A stretch of DNA of 40,393 bases from a virus (lineage: Duplodnaviria; Caudoviricetes), in IMG/VR virus record IMGVR_UViG_3300036856_000029, positions 1-40,393 of that record; one strand, given 5' to 3'. This document shows, piece after piece, positions 1 to 40,393 of this stretch. Under the pieces are notes generated by a model that worked only from the letters and a program-made list of their open reading frames with translations, was not told the origin of the DNA and made no database searches. Both the position numbers and the translations under genes were made by a program. Each line of letters begins with the position of its first letter. Position 1 is the first letter of the stretch.

Positions 1-114
1 GTAATTATCAGCCTATCACGCATCGCATGTAGATAGCAAGATGCTCCCCCACCCCCGGCACCTTGACCTTTCTTTCTCCTCTGCTTCTGATTCGTTGCTC
101 TGACTGGATCGCTC

Positions 115-180
115 CGCTTCGCAGGCGTTCCGCACTTTCGCACCCACTTCGCAGGCGTTCTGCGCCCACTTCGCACCCGC
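115..180 (+). repeat. Imperfect ~30-bp tandem repeat
   Basis: CTTCGCAGGCGTTC at 117 and 147; TTCGCACCC at 137 and 170. Confidence 0.7.
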
Positions 181-216
181 TTTGCATGGCTTGTGGCACT
201 ATGCGCAAACGTACTC

Positions 217-246
217 TTGACACGTTTACGACCTATCCCCTATATT
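217..246 (+). promoter_or_regulatory. Sigma70-type promoter of the rightward early operon
   Basis: TTGACA (217-222), 18 bp, TATATT (241-246); start expected near 252. Confidence 0.75.
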
Positions 247-264
247 CGGAGCTGCAACACCACT

Positions 265-300
265 TGGGCCTAGCCCAGCACCGAAAGGACGTACCGCATG
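265..300 (+). repeat. Repeated gene leader copy 1 (TGGGC-N3-GCCCA hairpin + GCACCGAAAGGA SD + ATG)
   Basis: TGGGCCTAGCCCAGCACCGAAAGGACGTACCGCATG; ends at the start codon at 298. Confidence 0.9.
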
Positions 301-948
301 GAATTGTTCGTCTCTCACCCGTCCAGCGACATACTTACCGAAAAGTACCGCCCGCTTCGCATCGCGGAGTTTGTGGGGCTTGACAAACCGCGCCGCATTG
401 CTGCCAAGTTCGCATCCAATCCGCCACGTACTGCGGGACTACTCTTCACAGGTGAACCCGGCATAGGCAAGACAACGCTCGCGCTCGCCATCGCAGCGGA
501 GATGCCTGCGGAGCTGCATCACGTCGCATCGCAAGATTGCAACATTGAACGGTTGCGCCAAGTAGTCGCAACATGCCACTACGTTCCAAGCGAAGGACGT
601 AAGCGGCATCTCGTGTTGATCGACGAAGCCGACCGCATGACACAAGCCGCACAGGATTACATGTTGTCAATCCTCGATTCAACCGCGCCGCCGCCGGATA
701 CGATCTTCATTTTGACCGCGAACAGCACGGAAAAACTTCACGAGCGTTTGCTCTCGCGCTGCATCCCTGTGCCGTTTTCGACGCATGGACAATCGACGCA
801 AACCGCTGCACTGTTAGAGCGCGTATGGGATGCGGAAGCCCCTGCAACCGCGCCGCGTCCCAACTTCGCGCGCATCGTCAAGGAATCGTGCAGCAACGTG
901 CGCGCGTCTCTCATGCAACTACAAACGGAGCTGCTACTCGCGGACTAA
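298..948 (+). CDS. Clamp-loader/RFC-RarA-like AAA+ ATPase lacking a C-terminal collar
   Basis: LTEKYRP..I.EFVG, Walker A GEPGIGKT, Walker B LIDEAD.MT..AQ, LLSRC arginine finger; only 216 aa. Confidence 0.85.
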   Translation: MELFVSHPSSDILTEKYRPLRIAEFVGLDKPRRIAAKFASNPPRTAGLLFTGEPGIGKTTLALAIAAEMPAELHHVASQDCNIERLRQVVATCHYVPSEGRKRHLVLIDEADRMTQAAQDYMLSILDSTAPPPDTIFILTANSTEKLHERLLSRCIPVPFSTHGQSTQTAALLERVWDAEAPATAPRPNFARIVKESCSNVRASLMQLQTELLLAD

Positions 949-967
949 CTGCAGCTCTCAAACCTCA

Positions 968-1003
968 TGGGCATTGCCCAGCACCGAAAGGACGTAACGC
1001 ATG
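968..1003 (+). repeat. Repeated gene leader copy 2
   Basis: TGGGCATTGCCCAGCACCGAAAGGACGTAACGCATG; ATG at 1001. Confidence 0.9.
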
Positions 1004-1186
1004 GAATCTACCTGCAAAATCTGCTCTCTTCGCTCTCACTTTGCGCTATGCGCGCATGGTGCGTGTGTCGTGTGTCGTGTGAGCTGCGAGTGTGCTGGAT
1101 GTCTCGCAGATGCGCAGCTCCGCACCCCGATGACGAAGGGCTCGCGGATGGTGAATGCTTCGGAGACAATCACCCGCTCTCACTGA
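1001..1186 (+). CDS. Small Cys-rich (Zn-binding?) hypothetical protein
   Basis: Starts at the leader ATG; CKIC, C.H..C..C...C.C..C. Confidence 0.6.
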   Translation: MESTCKICSLRSHFALCAHGACVVCRVSCECAGCLADAQLRTPMTKGSRMVNASETITRSH

Positions 1187-1225
1187 ATGGGCGCGCGTAG
1201 CAGCGCGCCACAATCTGCAACACCT

Positions 1226-1262
1226 TGGGCATTGCCCAGCACCGAAAGGACGTAATCGCATG
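1226..1262 (+). repeat. Repeated gene leader copy 3
   Basis: TGGGCATTGCCCAGCACCGAAAGGACGTAATCGCATG; ATG at 1260. Confidence 0.9.
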
Positions 1263-2162
1263 AATGCTTATGAAGTCATCACCGCGCGCCTGATCGAAAA
1301 ACTCGAAGCTGGCGTTATTCCTTGGAAGCAACCGTGGAAGAATAGCGCGCACGGCGCGTATCTCCCTACAAACTTCGCCACTGGACGCGGCTATCGCGGA
1401 ATCAATCTTGCGATGCTGCTTTGCAGCGGGTACGGCTCACAGCAGTGGATGACGTACAAGCAAGCGGAGGAGCTAGGCGCCAACGTTCGCAAGGGCGAGC
1501 GCGGCACCCCTGTTGTGTTCTGGAAGTTTCCCGGTAAAGCTGCGAATGAAGACGGTGCGATGGTGCGCGAGAAAGGCGCGCCGCTGTGCCGCTATTACAC
1601 GGTTTTCAACGTGGAACAGATTGACGGTTTGCCCGTCGATCTCCCCTTTGAAGATGCGCCTTTCGACGCCATCGAATCCGCGCAGCGCATCGTTGATGCG
1701 CATATGGCGAGCGCATCGCATCCGGAGCTGAAACACGGCGGCGCGAGTGCGTGCTACGTGCTCACTTACGACACGGTTTATATGCCCAAGCCGCAATCGT
1801 TTGTGACACCAGAAAAGTATTACTCCACGCTATTCCATGAGCTAGGTCACAGCACACGGCACCCGCGCCGCCTCGATCGCAAGAAAGAGGATGCGCGGTT
1901 TGGCTCCAAGGATTATGCAACTGAGGAGCTGGTAGCAGAGTTTACGGCGGCGTTTCTCTGCGCCGAATCAGGCATCGTTTCGGAGGACGTCGACGCGCAC
2001 AATGCGGCGTATATCAAGGATTGGCTGGATGTCTTCAAGGCTGATTCGCGCGTCGCTGTGATGGCTGCGCAGCGCGCACAAAAGGCCGCTGATTTCATCC
2101 TGGGCCGTGCCGCGTTCGATGCGGCTGAAGAGGCGCGCGAAGAGAGTGCGGTGGCCGCATAG
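1260..2162 (+). CDS. ardC: ArdC-family antirestriction/ssDNA-binding protein (DUF1738 + zincin-like domain)
   Basis: YE.IT..LIE.LE.G..PW..PW, YRGIN, W.TYKQA, VRKGE.G, YTVFNVEQ, HELGH, Y..EELVAE; start moved to the leader ATG at 1260. Confidence 0.93.
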   Translation: MNAYEVITARLIEKLEAGVIPWKQPWKNSAHGAYLPTNFATGRGYRGINLAMLLCSGYGSQQWMTYKQAEELGANVRKGERGTPVVFWKFPGKAANEDGAMVREKGAPLCRYYTVFNVEQIDGLPVDLPFEDAPFDAIESAQRIVDAHMASASHPELKHGGASACYVLTYDTVYMPKPQSFVTPEKYYSTLFHELGHSTRHPRRLDRKKEDARFGSKDYATEELVAEFTAAFLCAESGIVSEDVDAHNAAYIKDWLDVFKADSRVAVMAAQRAQKAADFILGRAAFDAAEEAREESAVAA

Positions 2163-2217
2163 GACGAAACGGGCAGAGCATCGCCCGTCGCAGCGTCAAG
2201 CGCTGCCTGATGAGTCC
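2162..2217 (+). ncRNA. Type II hammerhead ribozyme
   Basis: GGAC-GAAA-CGGGC-agagcatc-GCCCG-TC^-GCAGCG-tcaag-CGCTGC-CTGATGA-GTCC: complete core with three paired stems; predicted cleavage after C2189. Confidence 0.93.
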
Positions 2218-2238
2218 ACACCACGAAAGGAAACCTAA

Positions 2239-2478
2239 ATGCCCACCATCGACGAACGCCGCGAAGCTGTACGCGCACTCACTACCGAATGGCCGTATCT
2301 GAAAGCGTCCGAGCTCTACGACGCGGACGGAGATAGCCCAGAGAACATCGCCGTCAATTTGCAAATGCAAAAGACGGAGCTGCTTCGGGCGCTGAAAGAA
2401 ATCGTAGAGTCACAGCCGAAATTCTCCACTCCTGCCCGAATCGCTTCTGCCGCCATCGCCAACGCTGAAGGTCGCTAA
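2239..2478 (+). CDS. Hypothetical protein
   Basis: 79 aa ORF with SD GAAAGGA just downstream of the ribozyme. Confidence 0.7.
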   Translation: MPTIDERREAVRALTTEWPYLKASELYDADGDSPENIAVNLQMQKTELLRALKEIVESQPKFSTPARIASAAIANAEGR

Positions 2479-2497
2479 CAACCCAAACCCTCAACCA

Positions 2498-2535
2498 TGG
2501 GCCTCGCCCAGCACCGAAAGGAAACACTTTCAATG
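2498..2535 (+). repeat. Repeated gene leader copy 4
   Basis: TGGGCCTCGCCCAGCACCGAAAGGAAACACTTTCAATG; ATG at 2533. Confidence 0.88.
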
Positions 2536-2688
2536 ACTCCGAACGATCTGCACGAACTCGCCAATATGTACGGCTTCCTCGCCTGGCTGATTCCTACCCT
2601 CATCACCTTCGTGGCTCTCGTCGGCTACTGCTTTTGGATTTCACGCGACCGCGTACCCCGTTCGGCGCGCCGCAAGCGTGGGTTCTGA
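2533..2688 (+). CDS. Small single-pass membrane protein
   Basis: 51 aa; hydrophobic FLAWLIPTLITFVALVGYCFWI followed by a basic tail. Confidence 0.65.
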   Translation: MTPNDLHELANMYGFLAWLIPTLITFVALVGYCFWISRDRVPRSARRKRGF

Positions 2689-2795
2689 GGCTGTTGCACT
2701 CAGTCTCCACATTCACCCGCGCGGCTCGACGTACAGACGCGCGAATCGAGGGCAAACCGCCCGCCAACAGGCTGCAAAAACCATAAGGAGAGTAC

Positions 2796-3191
2796 ATGCA
2801 AATTCTCGACATCATCGCAGGGAAGTATCCGCAATTCCTCGAGCGCGCAGGCGTCGCCATCAAGGTCACCAATCAGCCGTACATGGATCTGAGCGTCGAG
2901 TCGATCGGCGCGCGCGGTCCGTGGGGCGAAGGTATCGCCGTTTCGATCTGCCACTACGGCGAGCAAAATGGTGATCTCATGCGTGACCCCGAGGTGTGTC
3001 TGGAGCGCACCGCTGCCGGCGGCTGGCGTCCGTACTACTACCGCAACGATTACGTCGGCTTCGAGCAAGAGAGCTGCGAGCCGGGCCTAGTCGCAGCTCT
3101 GGAAACCTTCTGCCGCACGTGGGATGCTAACCTGCGCAGCCAGGGATTCGTCACCGCAGTTGAGGCTGACAAAGCACAGGTGCGTGGATGA
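2796..3191 (+). CDS. DUF6908-like protein
   Basis: SD TAAGGAG; YMDLSVE, SICHYGEQNGDLMRDPE, W..NLR.QGF (family recalled from memory). Confidence 0.7.
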   Translation: MQILDIIAGKYPQFLERAGVAIKVTNQPYMDLSVESIGARGPWGEGIAVSICHYGEQNGDLMRDPEVCLERTAAGGWRPYYYRNDYVGFEQESCEPGLVAALETFCRTWDANLRSQGFVTAVEADKAQVRG

Positions 3192-3470
3192 CGCAGCGCA
3201 CCCTCTTCAACCTGCCAGCTCTGCCGCCCGTTCCTGCTGTCTGGGAACGGCGCGGCGGCGTCAACGGGGGCACCTGCGGCTCCTCTCACACTCACCTGCC
3301 CAGCGGCATGGTTGCGCGCCACTGTGGGCACCCTACGGCGAACTTTCCTTATTTACATCGAGACACCAGACGGCGGCTTGATCTATGCGCCGAACGGGCG
3401 CGGCTTCCAGCGTCTCGCGCTGGCTAAAGGGCATATTGAATCCCTCTGGAGGAATCGCACCAATGCCTAA
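3188..3470 (+). pseudogene. Hypothetical protein split by a 1-nt frameshift at ~3352-3354
   Basis: Frame 1 ends ...HCGHPTANFPY; removing one T continues YIETPDGGLIYAPNGRGFQRLALAKGHIESLWRNRTNA* with its stop overlapping the next ATG. Confidence 0.6.
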
Positions 3471-3759
3471 ATTCAAAGTTGAAGTTGAGGTCACCGCCCG
3501 CTGCCGGTACACCGTCGAGCTCGAAGCTGACGGCGAGGGGTGCGCCGAAGACGACGCGCTGAAGCTGTGGCGGTCGAAGCTGCCCGATGATTTCCAAGTC
3601 GAGAAAGGTTACATCGACGATTGGGACACGGAGGTCGAACAGCTCACGTGGGAGTGCACAGAGTGCGGCGCGGAGATCTCGCAGGAACAATCCGACAAGG
3701 GCGACGGTCTCTGCCCCGCCTGCGATGCGAAGATGAAGGCGGAGGAGAGCAGTGCCTAG
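3463..3759 (+). CDS. DpnD/PcfM-like domain + C-terminal Zn ribbon
   Basis: SD GGAGG; MPKFKVEV......TVELEA....AE; CTEC...CPAC. Confidence 0.6.
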   Translation: MPKFKVEVEVTARCRYTVELEADGEGCAEDDALKLWRSKLPDDFQVEKGYIDDWDTEVEQLTWECTECGAEISQEQSDKGDGLCPACDAKMKAEESSA

Positions 3760-4072
3760 TCGTGATCTAACCCCTGCGCAAGCCACCGACCTCGCGCGTT
3801 ACTTCCTCGGTCCGGAGTGGCGCGCGCGGCTCACCCATTCGCTACAGAAGCCGTACATGCTCAGCGACGGCCGCCAAGCCTACGCCGCCGCGAGCTGGCG
3901 CTCTCTCTTCCGGCTGGTCGACGTCAAGCTGCCGGTCCGGCCGCAGTTCATCTCCGCAGGGATGCGCGTGATGATGGGAGAGCGCGCCGTTGCCACCGCT
4001 GTATCAAACTCGATGGCCAAGCGCATCGCCGCCGCGCTCAACGAACACGAGCCTAACTCGCGCGGCATCTGA
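3752..4072 (+). CDS. Hypothetical protein
   Basis: GTG start with GGAGGAG SD, overlaps the upstream stop, ends at the terminator. Confidence 0.65.
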   Translation: MPSRDLTPAQATDLARYFLGPEWRARLTHSLQKPYMLSDGRQAYAAASWRSLFRLVDVKLPVRPQFISAGMRVMMGERAVATAVSNSMAKRIAAALNEHEPNSRGI

Positions 4073-4074
4073 AA

Positions 4075-4110
4075 CTAGAAAACCCCGCCGGCTTGGCGGG
4101 GTTGTTCTAG
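4075..4110. terminator. Hairpin terminator between convergent operons, probably bidirectional
   Basis: CTAGAA-AACCCCGCC-ggctt-GGCGGGGTT-g-TTCTAG. Confidence 0.8.
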
Positions 4111-4163
4111 CTCTGACAGTTTACCGCGACCTTTCTCTCCGTCCCCTCAGGGGATGAGCTTGT

Positions 4164-4349
4164 CTAGTGCACCCAACCTGCGCGCGGCGCGCTCTGTGCC
4201 TTCACCACGGCGATGGCAGCGCTGAAGCCTTGCATGGGTTCCGCAACCGACATGAACGCCGTACAGACCTCGCAGGCGCACGGAATCTGATGCCCTTCGA
4301 GGATCTCCAACACGCGCTTCTCCAGCCGGTCCCGCTCGCTCAGCTTCAT
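4164..4349 (-). CDS. Small hypothetical protein (H..PCACEVC)
   Basis: 61 aa, GAGG SD. Confidence 0.5.
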   Translation of the reverse strand: MKLSERDRLEKRVLEILEGHQIPCACEVCTAFMSVAEPMQGFSAAIAVVKAQSAPRAGWVH

Positions 4350-4422
4350 GGCCGTAACCTCATAGGCGAAGGCCGCGACGGTTATCGCGGCCCCCGTTGC
4401 TCAACATTGTTCGGGTACAACG

Positions 4423-5190
4423 TCAGTTACCGAAAACGAATTCCACGCCGATGATTGGGCTATATCCGCCGTTGATGGTGCTCTTCAAAACGCGCCCGGT
4501 TGGCATGATGAAATAGTTTTTGTTCTTGCTGATTCCAATCAATGCAGCAGCCCCGAGGTTGTACTGCCAGCCTGCGTTCGCTCCGCTCCACGCTACGCCC
4601 GTCGCCGTCGTGCCGTAGATGGGCACGCTGCCCAGCGTGAGCAGCTTCTGCGCGACACCGACACCGACGTTGGTTGTCACAGTGAAGGGCTTTGTCGTGT
4701 TCGGTAACGCGTCCAACACCGTAAACGCATAGGTGCCAGTGTTGCCGATGCCGTGCGCATAGAGCGCTGTGCCTGCGATCGCGGGGCTGCCTCCGGGGTT
4801 CCACGACGCGCCCAGGCCGTAGATGTTTGTGAGGTCGGCCGCCGGCGTCGCCGTCGTCGTGGCCGTCTGCGCGCGCATCGGCACCGCTGCCACCGCAAGC
4901 AGCGCGAGCACAGCCAGGGGAAGCCCGGCCTTCCGCTCGATCGCGGCCGACGGCGCCGCAAAGATCGATGGGAACAGATGCGCGAGCACGTTGGCGATGC
5001 CCACTAAAATCGTGAACGCGCCCGCGTGGGTGTTGAGCCAGCCCGTAGCCCAGCCGCCGAACAGCCCGGCGATCGTGCCTGCCAAAACGACGTACTGCGT
5101 GATTTTCGTAGTCACTGAAACGTTCTCCTTCGCGATCGATTTCGCTTTGTTGTAGTCACTCAACAGCTTGAACATCTGAATCGGATTCAT
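4423..5190 (-). CDS. Lysis-cassette membrane protein: two TM helices + internal signal peptide + probable outer-membrane beta-barrel
   Basis: Start MNPIQM at 5190 overlaps the upstream stop (ATGA); amphipathic strands; C-terminus GVEFVFGN. Confidence 0.65.
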   Translation of the reverse strand: MNPIQMFKLLSDYNKAKSIAKENVSVTTKITQYVVLAGTIAGLFGGWATGWLNTHAGAFTILVGIANVLAHLFPSIFAAPSAAIERKAGLPLAVLALLAVAAVPMRAQTATTTATPAADLTNIYGLGASWNPGGSPAIAGTALYAHGIGNTGTYAFTVLDALPNTTKPFTVTTNVGVGVAQKLLTLGSVPIYGTTATGVAWSGANAGWQYNLGAAALIGISKNKNYFIMPTGRVLKSTINGGYSPIIGVEFVFGN

Positions 5191-10754: not shown

Positions 10755-10883
10755 TTACAGCTCGCGCCGCATGCGGTGCAGCCGTTCGACTCGTCGCCGG
10801 CGGCGGTCCTCGTTCTCTGCCACGCGTGCGATGTCGAATCCGGCGATGAGCAACACAGAAGCGATAACGAGCAGCGTCAGCAC
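10755..10883 (-). CDS. 42-aa membrane peptide (absent from the ORF track)
   Basis: GAGGAG SD + GTG; MLTLLVIASVLLIAGFDIARVAENEDRRRRRVERLHRMRREL*; fills the gap in the operon. Confidence 0.6.
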   Translation of the reverse strand: MLTLLVIASVLLIAGFDIARVAENEDRRRRRVERLHRMRREL

Positions 10884-11158
10884 GCCGCCCGCTCCTCGAT
10901 GTCGAGCACATAGATGAGGCGGTCCTTGCGTCCGCGCGCCATCAGCAGGGTGCGCAGAGCGCGCGCGATGCGCCCGCCGCGGCCGATGACCTTGCCGATC
11001 TCGCGCGGGGGCACCTTCACGCCGAACGCGATGCGATCGGGATGCAGCTCGGGTTGGATGATGATCTTGTCGGGGTCCCGCTCATCGACCAGGTTGGTGA
11101 TGATGAGCGTGAGCCAGCTGGCGGTGAGAGTGGCTTTCTCTACAGTCTCGGAATTCAT
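10877..11158 (-). CDS. khpA: KhpA-like single KH-domain RNA-binding protein
   Basis: I..LVD..D.I.I, V...EIGKVIGRGGR.ARALRTLL, ..LDI; start MNSET. Confidence 0.82.
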   Translation of the reverse strand: MNSETVEKATLTASWLTLIITNLVDERDPDKIIIQPELHPDRIAFGVKVPPREIGKVIGRGGRIARALRTLLMARGRKDRLIYVLDIEERAAC

Positions 11159-11196
11159 ACCCCTAACGATACCCGTATCGCTAGGGGATATGTCAA
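11159..11196 (-). promoter_or_regulatory. Promoter (probably leaderless) overlapped by a 28-bp palindrome
   Basis: TTGACA, 19 bp, TATCGT, 7 nt, ATG; CCCCTAGCGATAC-GG-GTATCGTTAGGGG. Confidence 0.7.
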
Positions 11197-11205
11197 GGCC
11201 TATGG

Positions 11206-12414
11206 TTATGTGGCGTAAACACACCATGTCAATGTTCTCGGAACGGAACCGCTCGACAGAGAAACGGTCCAATTCGTACCGTTCCATGTCACGCTGCCGC
11301 TTCCAAGCCCGGTGATCTGGCTCGTTCCCAGCAGCTGCGACCCAAGATTCGCATCGAGGATGAACATCGCGGATCCACCGAGAGTGTTGTCTCGCAGCAC
11401 AAGCATCCCCGAAGCGGAGCCAGTGCCGGCAAGCGTTGTCGCGGTGGACAGGGCGGTGACCGACACCGACGAAGTGCCTCCGAATATGACAGCAGTGGAA
11501 GTAGCGCCGGTGATCGTACCGCCCGTCGACACGTTGCCATTCCCGTCGATGGAGAATGAGTTGGGGGTGCCACCGACCACCGTCAGCGTAGCAAAGGCTC
11601 CGATGCCGGGGGTCGTAGTGCCGATGGGGGGAGGAGCCGAGAACAGATTAGTCGTAGTGTCCCAAAAGGCTCCGGTGCTGGGGTTCTCGAAAAGAATGTT
11701 CGGGCCGGCAGCTGTCGCGCCTGCGAGCCGCGTGGCCGCGCCGGCCGTGCCACCGACGATGAAGTCACCCGCCGCGGTCATCGGGTTCCCGAAGCTGGCC
11801 GGGCAGTTGGTGCCTCCCGAGAGACACACCGCAGAGCCGCCGATGGTTGTGCCGGCCGCCAGCGTCGTCGTCGAAGTGGAGCTCAGTGTGGTGAATTTGC
11901 CGGCGGCGGCCGTCGTCTGCCCGACGGTCGTGCCATTGATCGCTCCGCCTGTGATCGCGACGCTGTTGGCGTTCTGAGTTGCCATCGTGCCGAGCGTGGG
12001 CAGCGCGACCGCGGTCTGCGAGGTCACCAGACCCTTCCCGTTCGTCGTGGGCACGCAGAAATGAGTCGAGTCGCCGCACGCTCCGGCTCCGCTGTTGACC
12101 GTCGTCAGCGTGAAGAGCGCGCTGCCTGGCCCGGTAGCAGCTCCATCGCCATGGAGCGCTGTAATCGCGCTCGGAGCCGCCGCCGCAAACCATCCGCTCG
12201 AGCCGCATTGATACTGCGTGTTGGGCGTGGTGCTGGTGTCGAGATAGGGCTGCTCGTAGTTGGCGCTGGTGCAGCTCGCCGCCGGAGCTCCGGAGCCGGT
12301 GGCCAGTGGCCAGTTGACCCCGTTGTTCGGGTTGATCTTCTGCGCGCTAGCTGCCGCTGTACATGTAATTGCAGATGTGAGAATCGCCGTCTTGAGGAAT
12401 GTACCCAGCTTCAT
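11206..12414 (-). CDS. Tail fibre/adhesin-like protein with N-terminal signal peptide
   Basis: G/T/A/S-rich; fibre-type motifs LGTMATQNANSVAITGGAI.GT..G.T....G.FT, NPMT.AGD.IVGG..G...RL; last gene of the virion operon. Confidence 0.65.
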   Translation of the reverse strand: MKLGTFLKTAILTSAITCTAAASAQKINPNNGVNWPLATGSGAPAASCTSANYEQPYLDTSTTPNTQYQCGSSGWFAAAAPSAITALHGDGAATGPGSALFTLTTVNSGAGACGDSTHFCVPTTNGKGLVTSQTAVALPTLGTMATQNANSVAITGGAINGTTVGQTTAAAGKFTTLSSTSTTTLAAGTTIGGSAVCLSGGTNCPASFGNPMTAAGDFIVGGTAGAATRLAGATAAGPNILFENPSTGAFWDTTTNLFSAPPPIGTTTPGIGAFATLTVVGGTPNSFSIDGNGNVSTGGTITGATSTAVIFGGTSSVSVTALSTATTLAGTGSASGMLVLRDNTLGGSAMFILDANLGSQLLGTSQITGLGSGSVTWNGTNWTVSLSSGSVPRTLTWCVYAT

Positions 12415-35744: not shown

Positions 35745-36082
35745 TGGTTCCCCTGCTTGGCGCGGTGTTCCGCGAAGGCTTTGGGCGTCGCGGTCACGTC
35801 CGGCACCGTCTTCTTCCACTCCTCGAACTGCTCGGGGTAGAGGATGTCTGGCCGGGTGCGCTCGAGCCGGCGGAAGCGTGCGAATGCTTCGCGGTCCTCG
35901 GGCGTCGATGGCTTGCGGCAGTAGCGGCACTCGCGCGTGTCCTGCTGGGCGCGCTGTGCGTCGCGGCGGATCTTCGCGCATTCTTTGGAGCAGGTGATGC
36001 TGCCCTTGGACAGCCGCTCGGTGCTGATGGGCTTGGCGTCGACGACACAAAAACCGGCTAGGTTGTAGGTACCCTTAGGCAT
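35741..36082 (-). CDS. Zn-finger protein, first gene of the virion operon
   Basis: C..D...TCS.EC and CRYC; start MPKGTY. Confidence 0.6.
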   Translation of the reverse strand: MPKGTYNLAGFCVVDAKPISTERLSKGSITCSKECAKIRRDAQRAQQDTRECRYCRKPSTPEDREAFARFRRLERTRPDILYPEQFEEWKKTVPDVTATPKAFAEHRAKQGNQ

Positions 36083-36084
36083 GA

Positions 36085-36115
36085 TTGACACACACCCCCT
36101 TCGTACCCGTATCAT
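36085..36115 (+). promoter_or_regulatory. Promoter for the RHH regulator (probably leaderless)
   Basis: TTGACA, 19 bp, TATCAT, 7 nt, ATG (36123); no SD. Confidence 0.65.
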
Positions 36116-36140
36116 ACCCCGTATGGGAAAAAGGCGGCAA
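36111..36140 (-). promoter_or_regulatory. Divergent promoter for the virion operon
   Basis: TTGCCG, 18 bp, TATGAT; its -10 overlaps the -10 of the opposite promoter. Confidence 0.5.
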
Positions 36141-36323
36141 CAGAAAAAGCCTGTCTATCGCGTGGTTGATCTGCGAGCCACCGAAGAGGAGCTGGACGAG
36201 ATTACGCGTGCAGCTCAAGCCGAGGCCGCTGAGCTTCGCATCGTCTACTCGCGGAATAACTATTGCGTGCGGATGCTGCTCGCCGCAGCGCGCAAACAGC
36301 TGAAGAAGGACGGGACCGAATGA
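36123..36323 (+). CDS. Ribbon-helix-helix (Arc-like) transcriptional regulator
   Basis: VVDLR.T.EE...I..AA........SRN.Y.V..L..A. Confidence 0.7.
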   Translation: MGKRRQQKKPVYRVVDLRATEEELDEITRAAQAEAAELRIVYSRNNYCVRMLLAAARKQLKKDGTE

Positions 36324-37565: not shown

Positions 37566-38255
37566 ATGCACGTTCTCGCGATCGCAAACCAGAAAGGGGG
37601 CTGTGGAAAGACGACCACGGCCATGAACCTCGCCGCTGGCCTCACCCGGGCGGGCTACCGCGTCCTCGTCGTCGACGCCGATCCGCAGGCCAGCGCCATG
37701 AGCTGGAGTCTCGCCAAGGGGCAGGGAAGCGTGCCGTTCGATGTGACCACCGCCCGCCAGCTCCGCGGCCGTCTGGGGTCGGTGAGCGAGGGCAGCCATG
37801 ATTTCGTCCTGGTCGACTGCTTGCCGGGGGTGATGACGGAGGACGACGCCGGCCGCATGGCGCGCTCGGCGGTCCGCTCGGCCGATGCGCTCCTGGTCCC
37901 GCTCATCCCGTCGCGGGTGGACTTCGTGGCGGCGGCGGCGTTCGTGCGCTACCTCGAGGGAGAGAGGACGCGCGCCGCGAAGGTCGCAGTCCTCATCAAC
38001 GGGCGTCGGCCGAACCTGCTGGGCCGCGAGGCGCGCGATCGCGCGGCGGTCCTGTTCTCGCCGATCGACGGCGCCCGCGTCCTCGAGACGACGATCGGCA
38101 TGCGAACGCCGATCACCGAAGTGTCCGGCTCCGGCAAAACCATCTTCGATTACGCGCCTGGCTCCGAGTCCGCGCGCGAGTACTTCCAGCTCACCAAGGA
38201 GATCCTGCAATGGCTAAGCGTGCCCTTATCGACGTCGACGACTTCAGCAGCTTGA
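37566..38255 (+). CDS. parA: ParA partition ATPase (type Ib, no N-terminal HTH)
   Basis: Deviant Walker [26 protein letters not shown]. Confidence 0.92.
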
Positions 38256-38569
38256 AAACAGAGTTACCCCCTGGGCGAGATGCCGGCGAGGCTCTAAGGG
38301 CGATTGTGGGCCCGGAATCGGCATCGCAGGAGACGGCTCCGCCTATCGATTTCGCTGCTCGTGCTCAAGAACTCGAGGCTCGCGAGCGACTGATCATCGC
38401 GCAGGCGCTCGTGCGGGCCGCGCTACCTGATGATCCGTTGGTGCCGTTCCCGCTGCAGCTCCCATTCAGCATGGTGGCGGCGCTGCGGAGACTAAAACGA
38501 GAGCGCGGCCTGATCCCGGCACATATCGTGCGTCAGGCGGTCGCAAAGGCTCTCGCGGAGCTGGGCTAG
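38210..38569 (+). CDS. Type Ib centromere-binding protein (ParG-like RHH)
   Basis: AAGGAG SD; unstructured N-terminus, C-terminal FPLQLP...V..L..L......A.IVRQAV...L. Confidence 0.65.
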
Positions 38570-39612
38570 GAAGCTGTGGCGCTATGTGTCCGGCGCTCTG
38601 AGCGGCGTTTGACGGCTAACGGGCTGCGCTGGACCACCATGCCGCCGCCGTGGGGCATGTACTTGATTCGCAGGGTGGGGTAGGCAGCCTGCACCTTCCT
38701 CATCGCTACCCGCACCTTGCGGCTCAGCTCCCGGTTGCTGGCGTAGTGACAGCCCAGCTGGTCCGCGAGGTATTCCCATGTGAGCGCGTGGCTCTTGAGC
38801 TTCTTGCTGTCGATGTACTCCGTGAGGTAGCAGCACAGGATGTACAGGTCGATCGCGAGGGCCGAGCTCTTGAGCATCGAAATTGCCTCGATGCGGAAGG
38901 GCACCGCGCTCTTCATGATCGCCGCGAAGAAATCGGGGCTGAGCTCAATCCAGCTTTCGAAAAACGCCTTGCCGTCCGGGTTCCGAACGTCCCACCACAG
39001 CGCGTTCTTGGAGCTGATTGCCGCGTTCTCCAGCTCGTAGCCTTCCATCGCGCGGAGGGTGCCCGCTTCGCTGTAAACGCCCTTCAGCCCGCGGTGAAAG
39101 CTGATGTGACACTTGAGAAGCCGTTGGAGCTGCTTCTGCAGGTTGCGCGCCATGCTGCGCTTGCCTCGGCTGTCGTCGCCGATCTCCAGCTTGCGGGCGA
39201 ACTCTGCGAACGAATCGCCGAGCTTGATGCGGCGGTCCTTGCGGATCTTCGCCTCGCTGACCATCCAGATCAAAATGAGCCGTGGCAGCGCCCCGTATGG
39301 GTATCCAGTTGAGCAACTTTTTTTCACGTCCCAGCCAGGTTGAACGACTAAAGTCTCGCCGTTCTCGCCGCCGTTTTTCCGCGTCCACACAGGGACGTTG
39401 CCGGGGTCTTTGTGGGGCAGCGTGCATTTGACAAGGCACGTCGCGAGATAGCCGCTGGGGCCGTCGTCGTGCGGAATGACCTTGATTTCTGCTGCTTTGG
39501 CCGCCAGCTTCAGCTGCGCCGTGGTTGGTGTTCGCGGTGTTCCGGGGGTTTGTTTCTCGGCGTTCAGTTGAGGCCGGGAGCCAAGCTCTGTAGAGGACTC
39601 ACGTTCGTTCAT
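38566..39612 (-). CDS. repA: Plasmid replication initiator (RepA_C, IncW-like family)
   Basis: CTLPH.DP, W.R.NG, G.PYG..PRL.L.W, I.LG.S...F, QL.RL, A.DLY; start 39612 or 39636 (the track start at 39738 lies inside an iteron). Confidence 0.85.
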   Translation of the reverse strand: MNERESSTELGSRPQLNAEKQTPGTPRTPTTAQLKLAAKAAEIKVIPHDDGPSGYLATCLVKCTLPHKDPGNVPVWTRKNGGENGETLVVQPGWDVKKSCSTGYPYGALPRLILIWMVSEAKIRKDRRIKLGDSFAEFARKLEIGDDSRGKRSMARNLQKQLQRLLKCHISFHRGLKGVYSEAGTLRAMEGYELENAAISSKNALWWDVRNPDGKAFFESWIELSPDFFAAIMKSAVPFRIEAISMLKSSALAIDLYILCCYLTEYIDSKKLKSHALTWEYLADQLGCHYASNRELSRKVRVAMRKVQAAYPTLRIKYMPHGGGMVVQRSPLAVKRRSERRTHSATAS

Positions 39613-39676
39613 GTTTTTGGGCCTGTCACCATCCATTACAACGAGTGCGGCTGTTTGTCCATTCCCCTTGACCCTG

Positions 39677-39685
39677 TTATCCACA
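39677..39685 (+). promoter_or_regulatory. DnaA box
   Basis: Perfect TTATCCACA next to the iterons. Confidence 0.75.
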
Positions 39686-39721
39686 ACTTCCACAGCCAAT
39701 TTTGGGAATCGCCTCGCGCCT

Positions 39722-39999
39722 CCGGTGAATTGGTACACGCACCCGAAAAGCGAAAAAATAGCGCAAGCAGCTCAGACAAGTCCCTCCGGTGAATCGGTAC
39801 ACGCGTAGACCGGTGAATCGGTACAGTCGCGGAGCGACTTTTCCAGTATCCATGCGGGTTTTGTCGCGCGGGTTTTGGCGTTTTTGGCCGCGCGATTTGA
39901 GGGCCGCGAGACCGGTGAATCGGTACACGCGACCCTCGCGAATATTGATTCCGTCTCCGGTGAATTGGTACACGCTGACTCCGGTGAATTGGTACACGC
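39722..39999 (+). repeat. Six replication iterons (oriV)
   Basis: CCGGTGAATYGGTACA(CGC) at 39722, 39786, 39810, 39912, 39957, 39981, upstream of repA. Confidence 0.92.
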
Positions 40000-40393
40000 T
40001 TAACCAGGTAGTAGGAACAGATACGTGGTGACCGCACGTAGTCGGCGGCAACGCAAAAGTGGAAATCCTCGCTCACCCGCCTTCTGGGCAGCTCTGGCGA
40101 TCTCGCGATCTCTGACAGCGCTCCGGCGATCCGCACTGGCTCTCTCAGCACCTTTCCAGCACCCCTAACTTCTGTCGCCTCTACAGGCATTTGCACTAAG
40201 TGCCACACGCACCCTCTAAGGGACCTCTGAGCCTGTAAGAAAGAGCGCTGCGCGCGCCCTGCAACCGCCCCTGCCCAAACAATGATGCAACGGTGAAGGG
40301 TAACAAAGAATAGGCACAGGGCTAATACAACGTCCAAGCCAATAGACAAAGACTTGCGAGAATGGTTAGGCTAAACAAAGATTCTTGCGATAT

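Follow-up and report, generated by a model that had tools for sequence, protein, structure and literature searches.

A repeated hairpin leader and a predicted hammerhead ribozyme in the early operon of a phage-plasmid

In T4-type phages, the repeats named PeSLs place a stem-loop, a Shine-Dalgarno sequence and a start codon before variable small early genes, and their recombination from copy to copy, for which mini-circles have been demonstrated, explains insertions, deletions and swaps of those genes (Arbiol 2010, PMC2839356; Comeau 2014, PMC4122927). Prophages carry clustered hammerhead ribozymes, including some beside ardA, that have been proposed to cut polycistronic RNA (Perreault 2011, PMC3088659), and twister ribozymes occur in the same contexts, the role of bacterial self-cleaving ribozymes being considered largely open (Weinberg 2019, PMC6765202). 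The subject of this work is a viral contig of 40,393 bases (IMG/VR record IMGVR_UViG_3300036856_000029; Duplodnaviria, Caudoviricetes), which is analysed whole and is called the window hereafter. Its early operon contains four copies of a leader made of a hairpin, a linker and a ribosome site, each before a start codon, and a hammerhead fold after the anti-restriction gene ardC.

This operon works like the PeSLs of T4 and the ribozyme clusters of prophages combined and fits neither of them, each of its ingredients having a precedent. As with PeSLs, the repeats unite a stem-loop, a Shine-Dalgarno sequence and a start codon, and insertions, deletions and swaps bounded by leaders occur here too. 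However, PeSLs are found in large virulent genomes and include both a sigma70 promoter and a stem-loop of terminator type (PMC2839356, PMC4122927), whereas the internal copies described here lack a promoter and a U-tract, their stem has 5 base pairs (bp) and the repeats occupy one operon of a 40-kb phage-plasmid. The leaders can be regarded as PeSL shuffling in a compact form free of promoters, with one clear and recent swap from leader to leader. As in the prophage clusters (PMC3088659), the hammerhead is of type II and lies between early genes near an anti-restriction gene, but here an operon usually has a single ribozyme, whose place is fixed behind ardC/DUF932 or the ATPase gene; genomes differ in filling this slot with a type II hammerhead, a twister P5 or a twister-P1-like motif, and the other junctions hold plain hairpin leaders. 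No description of this leader family, or of the combination of leader and ribozyme, was found in a literature search that covered few subscription papers and no supplements.

The motif TGGGC-N3-GCCCA-GCACCGAAAGGA has four exact matches in the window, all on the + strand, at 265, 968, 1226 and 2498 (leader copies 1 to 4, spanning 265–289, 968–992, 1226–1250 and 2498–2522), with no further match in the window at up to 3 mismatches and 0 matches in 100 dinucleotide shuffles. Copy 1 comprises the 5-bp hairpin, with a stem probability of 0.95 in folding, a GCACC linker and a GAAAGGA ribosome site, and its hairpin ends 20 nucleotides (nt) before the ATG. Across the copies, the distance from hairpin to ATG is 20–22 nt and that from GAAAGGA to ATG is 8, 8, 9 and 10 nt, with the ATGs at 298, 1001, 1260 and 2533. 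The genes that follow encode a clamp-loader-like AAA+ ATPase of 216 amino acids (aa), which is the fixed anchor gene of the operon (298–948), a Cys-rich peptide of 61 aa without family (1001–1186), the ArdC anti-restriction protein of 300 aa (1260–2162) and a hydrophobic peptide of 51 aa (2533–2688), all on the + strand. The stem is invariant, the loops read CTA, ATT, ATT and CTC in copies 1 to 4, and CTGCAACACC stands 5′ of copies 1 and 3. On all of these points (the four copies before start codons, the constant stem with changing loops and the shared upstream sequence) a preliminary description of this DNA, drawn from its letters, had been correct. The single promoter-like site on the + strand in a promoter scan of 1–4500 is a sigma70-like early promoter (TTGACA-18-TATATT) at 217–246, and a TTGAC box occupies the matching place in the 25 rows listed for relatives and window; since no second site competes with it on that strand, the transcript would start at about 252–254, with the first CTGCAACACC (252–261) at its 5′ end.

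Repeats that share one orientation and serve one gene each resemble integron attC sites, and a −10-like TATAGT in the internal copies of three relatives (L073, L086 and L028) could point to promoter-terminators of the PeSL type or to single-stranded DNA promoters. Such readings are largely excluded for this genome and retain hardly any likelihood: no attC boxes (RYYYAAC/GTTRRRY) occur in the five junctions, no T was found in the 10 nt 3′ of any hairpin, no leader hairpin was scored as a terminator, no −35-like box was found before copies 2–4 and no integrase was detected among the 35 large open reading frames scanned in the window. The attC, terminator and internal-promoter interpretations were therefore rejected. 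Moreover, the element is far shorter than EGeRS1 of pLS20 plasmids, a repeated structured sequence that also precedes establishment genes including ardC, which measures 420–751 bp and blocks read-through, unlike the short leaders here (PMC8708921).

Relatives were collected by alignment search, which gave 60 viral loci with the ATPase; of 39 metagenome matches, L038 and L050 were taken in (L numbers denote loci of the collection). The exact leader is present on 7 other contigs. In relatives, the clamp-loader-like ATPase is usually the first gene of the operon and a gene of a conserved family, F1, often the last, the first gene lying within 750 bases of a contig end in 37 of the 60 loci. Gene content between these anchors is highly variable, with ArdC, DUF932, GGDEF, DUF2958 and many orphans, as called by a simple in-house script that may miss or miscall small genes. 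Hairpins were counted in 27 F1-bearing genomes and scored when they ended 2–17 nt before the ribosome site, leaving out L107 (a near-duplicate of L104) and L004, L031, L092 and L109 (whose first gene is truncated or has a miscalled start). They are found in 22 of 24 first leaders, compared with 3.8 ± 1.8 in shuffles, and in 74 of 102 spaced internal leaders, compared with 22.5 ± 3.8, and two or more hairpin leaders occur in 24 of the 27 genomes; there is no enrichment before coupled genes (7/46 versus 7.3 expected) or before the opposite-strand genes of the relatives (9/84 versus 10.8). Each lineage has its own stems, which recur within a genome, loops measure 3–7 nt and include UUCG (11 of 96) and GCAA/GAAA (7 of 96), and the outer pair is found as UA, GC, GU, UG, AU and CG. 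Beside the stems, G·U exceeds A·C (inner 7:1, outer 28:17), in genomes that are related and hence not independent. The hairpin is conserved as a structure, not as a sequence.

The enrichment of hairpins, the turnover of stems by lineage, the variable loops including UUCG and GNRA types, and the G·U excess together favour a hairpin in the sense-strand RNA over a DNA operator. A double-stranded DNA operator before each gene, acting as a roadblock or repressor site, would account for the perfect 13-bp palindrome and for its spacer, which is constant across the four copies of the window, and the inverted repeats of the ESAS elements have been read in this way (PMC3203893). However, the spacer varies between 3, 4 and 5 nt within single genomes (L014, L015 and L018) and the distance to the ATG is fixed, which, added to the sense-strand G·U excess and the loop types, makes this operator very unlikely. 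The selection on structure that the preliminary description had read from the invariant stem is supported by stem turnover, loop lengths and G·U pairs across the family, whereas the invariant stem taken by itself would fit a DNA operator equally well. SAS and ESAS of Cluster K mycobacteriophages share with the leaders an oriented ribosome-site repeat just before the ATG of non-structural genes, as well as an upstream inverted repeat and a consensus specific to each subcluster (Pope 2011, PMC3203893). Nevertheless, the 17-bp imperfect repeats of ESAS were judged not to pair in RNA, whereas here the 4–5 bp stems are perfect and the loops are of RNA type; the 13-bp SAS consensus is not matched here; and SAS are spread over half the genome (PMC3203893), whereas the leaders share one operon, in which there is evidence for swapping.

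The repeats might also be by-products of the duplication of a strong 5′ untranslated region, in which the ribosome site and homology matter and the hairpin is passively carried. In agreement with this, internal copies resemble the first leader including its upstream bases, L104 and L107 hold a 65-nt internal repeat at 92–98%, and the effect of the hairpin on the accessibility of the ribosome site is inconsistent. However, stems have been replaced wholesale between lineages with their pairing kept, an unrelated second hairpin family (GGGCGGC type) occupies the same position in five close relatives, and loops vary where stems do not, and we consider passive carriage improbable.

The leaders also coincide with the places at which gene content changes between relatives. 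L017 and L109 share a GGDEF block that is 95.4% identical from 16–19 nt before one hairpin to the ribosome site of the next leader, and its silent sites are identical at 108 of 119 positions, compared with 14/36, 12/24 and 18/37 (39–50%) in three other genes shared by both, a fourth shared gene offering 3 silent sites. Two leader copies in L086 enclose a 56-aa gene that L073 lacks, and a 104-aa gene that is absent from L109 and L016 stands in L017, flanked by two copies of a second hairpin leader. L074 and L076 agree at 86.5% as far as the ATG that follows the second leader, beyond which their genes differ. Gene differences that begin and end at leaders are what crossovers within the repeats would leave behind, bearing in mind that repeats by themselves lengthen the alignments of leader-bounded blocks; gain, loss and exchange of cassettes at leaders had been foreseen in the preliminary description. 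In contigs of one DNA run, a possible source of the window, no leader-to-leader joint was found, contigs being prone to drop rare variants; the sole joint in that run lies inside ardC, has 24 letters on a side and likely belongs to another organism. The GGDEF-domain gene moves as an early-operon cassette in L016, L017, L018, L050 and L109, and is possibly a way to change host c-di-GMP. L050 also carries an IS1595-family transposase inserted in its early operon (1866–2795), and L004, L050 and L109 have a truncated ATPase.

The junction after ardC differs from the others. At 2162–2217 (+ strand), folding, a descriptor and a family alignment predict a self-cleaving type II hammerhead, which lay within the region covered by the preliminary description and was overlooked there. 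Stem II pairs 2162–2165 with 2214–2217, GAAA occupies 2166–2169, stem III pairs 2170–2174 with 2183–2187, stem I pairs 2190–2195 with 2201–2206, CUGAUGA occupies 2207–2213 and the predicted cut falls after C2189 (GUC). The core is complete (CUGANGA, GAAA and NUH, with three stems, stem II being open), and the stem probabilities are 0.92, 0.79 and 0.92. A pairing of 4 bp between loop I (2196–2200) and the 3′ tail (after 2217) was not found by eye, such a pseudoknot being common and not universal, and all Rfam matches in 1–4500 are at chance level. A descriptor scan of 523 kb (the first 7 kb of the window and 62 loci) gave 5 strict hammerheads on the operon (+) strand and 0 on the other, with 0 in 1.05 Mb of reversed decoys. 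The 79-aa gene 3′ of the ribozyme (2239–2478, +) has a C-rich linker and GAAAGGA without the TGGGC hairpin, whereas in several relatives a standard hairpin leader stands 3′ of the ribozyme; in the window, the predicted cut after 2189 would leave stem I as the 5′ hairpin of the message for the 79-aa gene.

Among 30 ends of ardC/DUF932, 11 overlap or abut the next gene and 19 are free, and a hammerhead or twister lies directly after 11 of these 19. Twister-P5 gave 10 matches above the Rfam cut-off in 9 of 49 ATPase loci scanned (of the 60), and a type II hammerhead stands beside the ATPase in 7 of 53 genome loci, 6 of them right after the ATPase and 1 between DUF932 and the ATPase. The sisters L073 and L086 hold different ribozyme classes, hammerhead and twister, in one slot, and L029 has a twister-P1-like motif there, by pattern only. 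At the ardC/DUF932 junction, some genomes have a hammerhead or a twister and others a plain hairpin or directly overlapping genes, a natural comparison in which cut and no cut could be tested in one context; the slot is also a place to seek new ribozyme classes. L014 has at 2797–2855 a type II hammerhead fold with intact stems and the core CUCAGGA for CUGANGA, a variant or decayed form known by pattern only. In L071 (1829–1880) and L092 (1967–2030), the slot holds no known ribozyme and a shared motif, CGCGTCCTAC, then a hairpin, then CGTCAA, possibly an RNA not described before, with two examples; a 14-letter scan of 20 of the 64 parts of the collection gave 119 mostly chance loci and no convincing third case.

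We favour, with moderate confidence, a portable RNA start module that uncouples the genes of the operon and likely protects cut 5′ ends, with a ribozyme that splits the message and repeats that serve as crossover sites. Hairpins and bound ribosomes slow decay from the 5′ end, and the footprint of the ribosome reaches about 20 nt upstream. The repeats would be copies of the operon's own 5′ leader (hairpin, linker and ribosome site), the hairpin likely folding in the RNA just beyond the ribosome's footprint and each copy likely giving the next gene its own translation start. The hairpin would likely also shield the 5′ end of a cut message, a cut that the hammerhead after ardC is predicted to supply; it would part the message of the ATPase and ardC from that of the downstream small genes, and the two parts could therefore decay at different rates. 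Crossovers between leader copies, presumably by homologous recombination, likely add, drop and swap genes. The SRPS stem-loops are likewise intergenic and set the stability of processed messages, but they are not repeats and protect 3′ ends, unlike the leaders here (PMC4423207).

Several observations weigh against this reading. The hairpin of copy 1 begins 11–13 nt after the probable transcript start and not at the very 5′ end. Copies 1–3 fold no better than shuffles over 50–80 nt (z 0.76, −0.46 and −1.51), unlike copy 4 (z −3.09). The ribosome site is unpaired at 0.67, 0.19, 0.61 and 0.29 in the four copies, versus 0.49, 0.44, 0.58 and 0.30 with permuted hairpin letters, and a hairpin that insulates or frees the ribosome site was rejected as unsupported in folding, the effect being inconsistent across copies. 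No cutter was identified at the four hairpin copies or upstream of copies 2–4; the mRNA processing proposed in the preliminary description finds support solely at the hammerhead junction, which it had missed. The window's own opposite-strand leaders have hairpins in 9 of 26 cases, versus 5.1 ± 2.0. When 29 first leaders, chosen by hand, were aligned without editing, the structure scored above all 500 shuffles, but a slide by +1 column scores 0.220 versus 0.194 for the structure, because loop lengths differ. The own-genome first leader is the unique best match for 16 of 67 internal leaders, with 4 more tied, and homogenisation of the leaders is therefore partial. L050 puts directly behind a leader a gene that is coupled to ardC elsewhere, an arrangement that leader-to-leader crossover cannot give and that therefore needs another route, and intergenic breakpoints are expected under any mechanism through selection for intact genes. 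As for the ribozyme, no Rfam family reaches the gathering level in the window, Hammerhead_3 scoring 17 bits (E 7.9) on the hammerhead, and the 12 aligned hammerheads (95.8% of cells paired, score 0.635 versus 0.045–0.112 when slid) were picked by a stem-demanding descriptor, which makes their covariation partly circular.

The job of the hairpin would be either 5′ protection or to serve as a protein site. The second option is the main rival, because its geometry equals that of the Aca1 motif: a phage protein would bind each hairpin, block the ribosome and shut the early array after establishment, as Aca1 and Aca2 do, while swapping would still occur and any gene captured behind a leader would join the regulon. 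In the 5′ untranslated regions of acr-aca1/aca2 operons, a lineage-specific hairpin follows the transcript start and the inverted repeat of the Aca1 motif stops some 20 nt short of the start codon, close to the 20–22 nt found here; these operons serve counter-defence and, as here, have a DNA palindrome close to the promoter (Feussner 2026, PMC13551039). However, acr-aca operons hold one motif each (PMC13551039), whereas several occur here, and no helix-turn-helix Aca or acr gene was identified in the operon, Pfam finding no helix-turn-helix gene there. In favour of an operator, stem and linker sequences are particular to each lineage and recur within a genome, and many relatives have an imperfect palindrome about 10 bp 5′ of the −35 box; against it, even a single genome varies freely in loop sequence and loop length. 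In the F1 model, the N-terminal half shows a topology like a double-stranded RNA-binding domain (best such row Z 3.8, root-mean-square deviation 2.6, 46 residues, below significance), a part that is missing in several hairpin-bearing lineages. F1 has no Pfam family, no Foldseek match at E ≤ 0.001 and no usable Atlas match, and a fold search by VIA gave nothing significant (best Z 4.9); F1 as a known regulator was rejected, having neither a Pfam family nor a significant fold match. The window also encodes a KhpA/KhpB-type KH RNA-binding protein (10877–11287, −; PF13083 above cut-off), rejected as a universal partner of the hairpins since a KhpA-like KH gene is present in 8 of 36 relatives, whose records may be incomplete. 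Overall, we regard RNA operators as a tentative alternative, of clearly lower probability than the start module. A bolder combination, which we hold to be rather unlikely, would be an integrase-free array whose repeat is both crossover site and RNA operator read by a phage protein, with an ardC slot that takes any self-cutting RNA and an undescribed ribozyme in the L071/L092 motif; if the repeat had both roles, every captured gene would join one translational switch.

The preliminary description had assigned to the operon a cargo of host-interaction genes and anti-defence cassettes, for which ArdC is the one known case. Its domains, Pfam ArdcN and MPTase-PolyVal (PF08401, E 5e-35; PF18818, E 2e-37; phrog_7245), are the sole known host-interaction family in the operon, whereas the AAA+ gene is the fixed first gene and not cargo, and the peptides have no Pfam family above cut-off. 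The ATPase matches clamp-loader profiles below NCBIfam cut-offs, is about 100 aa shorter than the profiles matched and gives P-loop-level matches in PADLOC, nothing more specific. For the 61-aa peptide, no Pfam match and no homologue among the called genes of relatives were found; the 51-aa peptide has one weak Pfam match, below cut-off, and its cassette recurs with its leader in L004 among different neighbours. The leaders flag small uncharacterised genes that are the first to be expressed by a phage-plasmid from a little-studied phylum, and these genes are counter-defence candidates. ArdC lies near a clamp-loader-like ATPase in 26 of the 53 genome loci (L112–L164), in either order across the family, which suggests that both form a functional pair.

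The contig is a phage-plasmid, since it unites virion genes (terminase and major head matches, together with an endolysin match) with a plasmid Rep, a partition ATPase and iteron-like repeats. The replicon region (37566–40020) includes a ParA-family gene (37566–38255, +) with a 119-aa partner, RepA_C (ending at 38566, −) and five iteron-like 24-nt repeats (39717–39999); RepA_C was also detected in 14 of 36 relatives, and no terminal repeat was found at the contig ends. Acidobacteriota are the likely host phylum, because 47 of the 53 genome loci with the first gene are named as lineages of this phylum, to which we take the lower-rank names among them to belong.

The rest of the early operon lies on the + strand. 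An extra 7-bp GC hairpin (1190–1209) occupies the space from the stop codon of the 61-aa gene to leader copy 3. Behind the 51-aa gene, a 107-nt structured spacer (2689–2795), which may form a pseudoknot and includes at 2750 a GGGC/GCCC hairpin related to the leader hairpin, precedes a DUF6908 gene (Pfam; 2796–3191); the spacer has no Rfam match, and no relative of it was found, a search with the DUF6908 cassette giving one weak match. It is followed by a Zn-ribbon-like gene of family F3, common to the close clade (3463–3759), by the F1 gene, the late anchor of the array, with 32 called members in its family (3752–4072), and by a strong hairpin that closes the operon and is scored terminator-like on the − strand (4075–4110). 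Elsewhere, an 80-aa protein (36081–36323, +) shows a ribbon-helix-helix-like pattern by eye, with no Pfam match at E 0.001. Upstream of the promoter, an imperfect palindrome at about 196–212, resembling a DNA operator, keeps its position in relatives, and short direct repeats (CGCAGGCGTTC and CGCACCC units) occupy 119–181, near the contig end.

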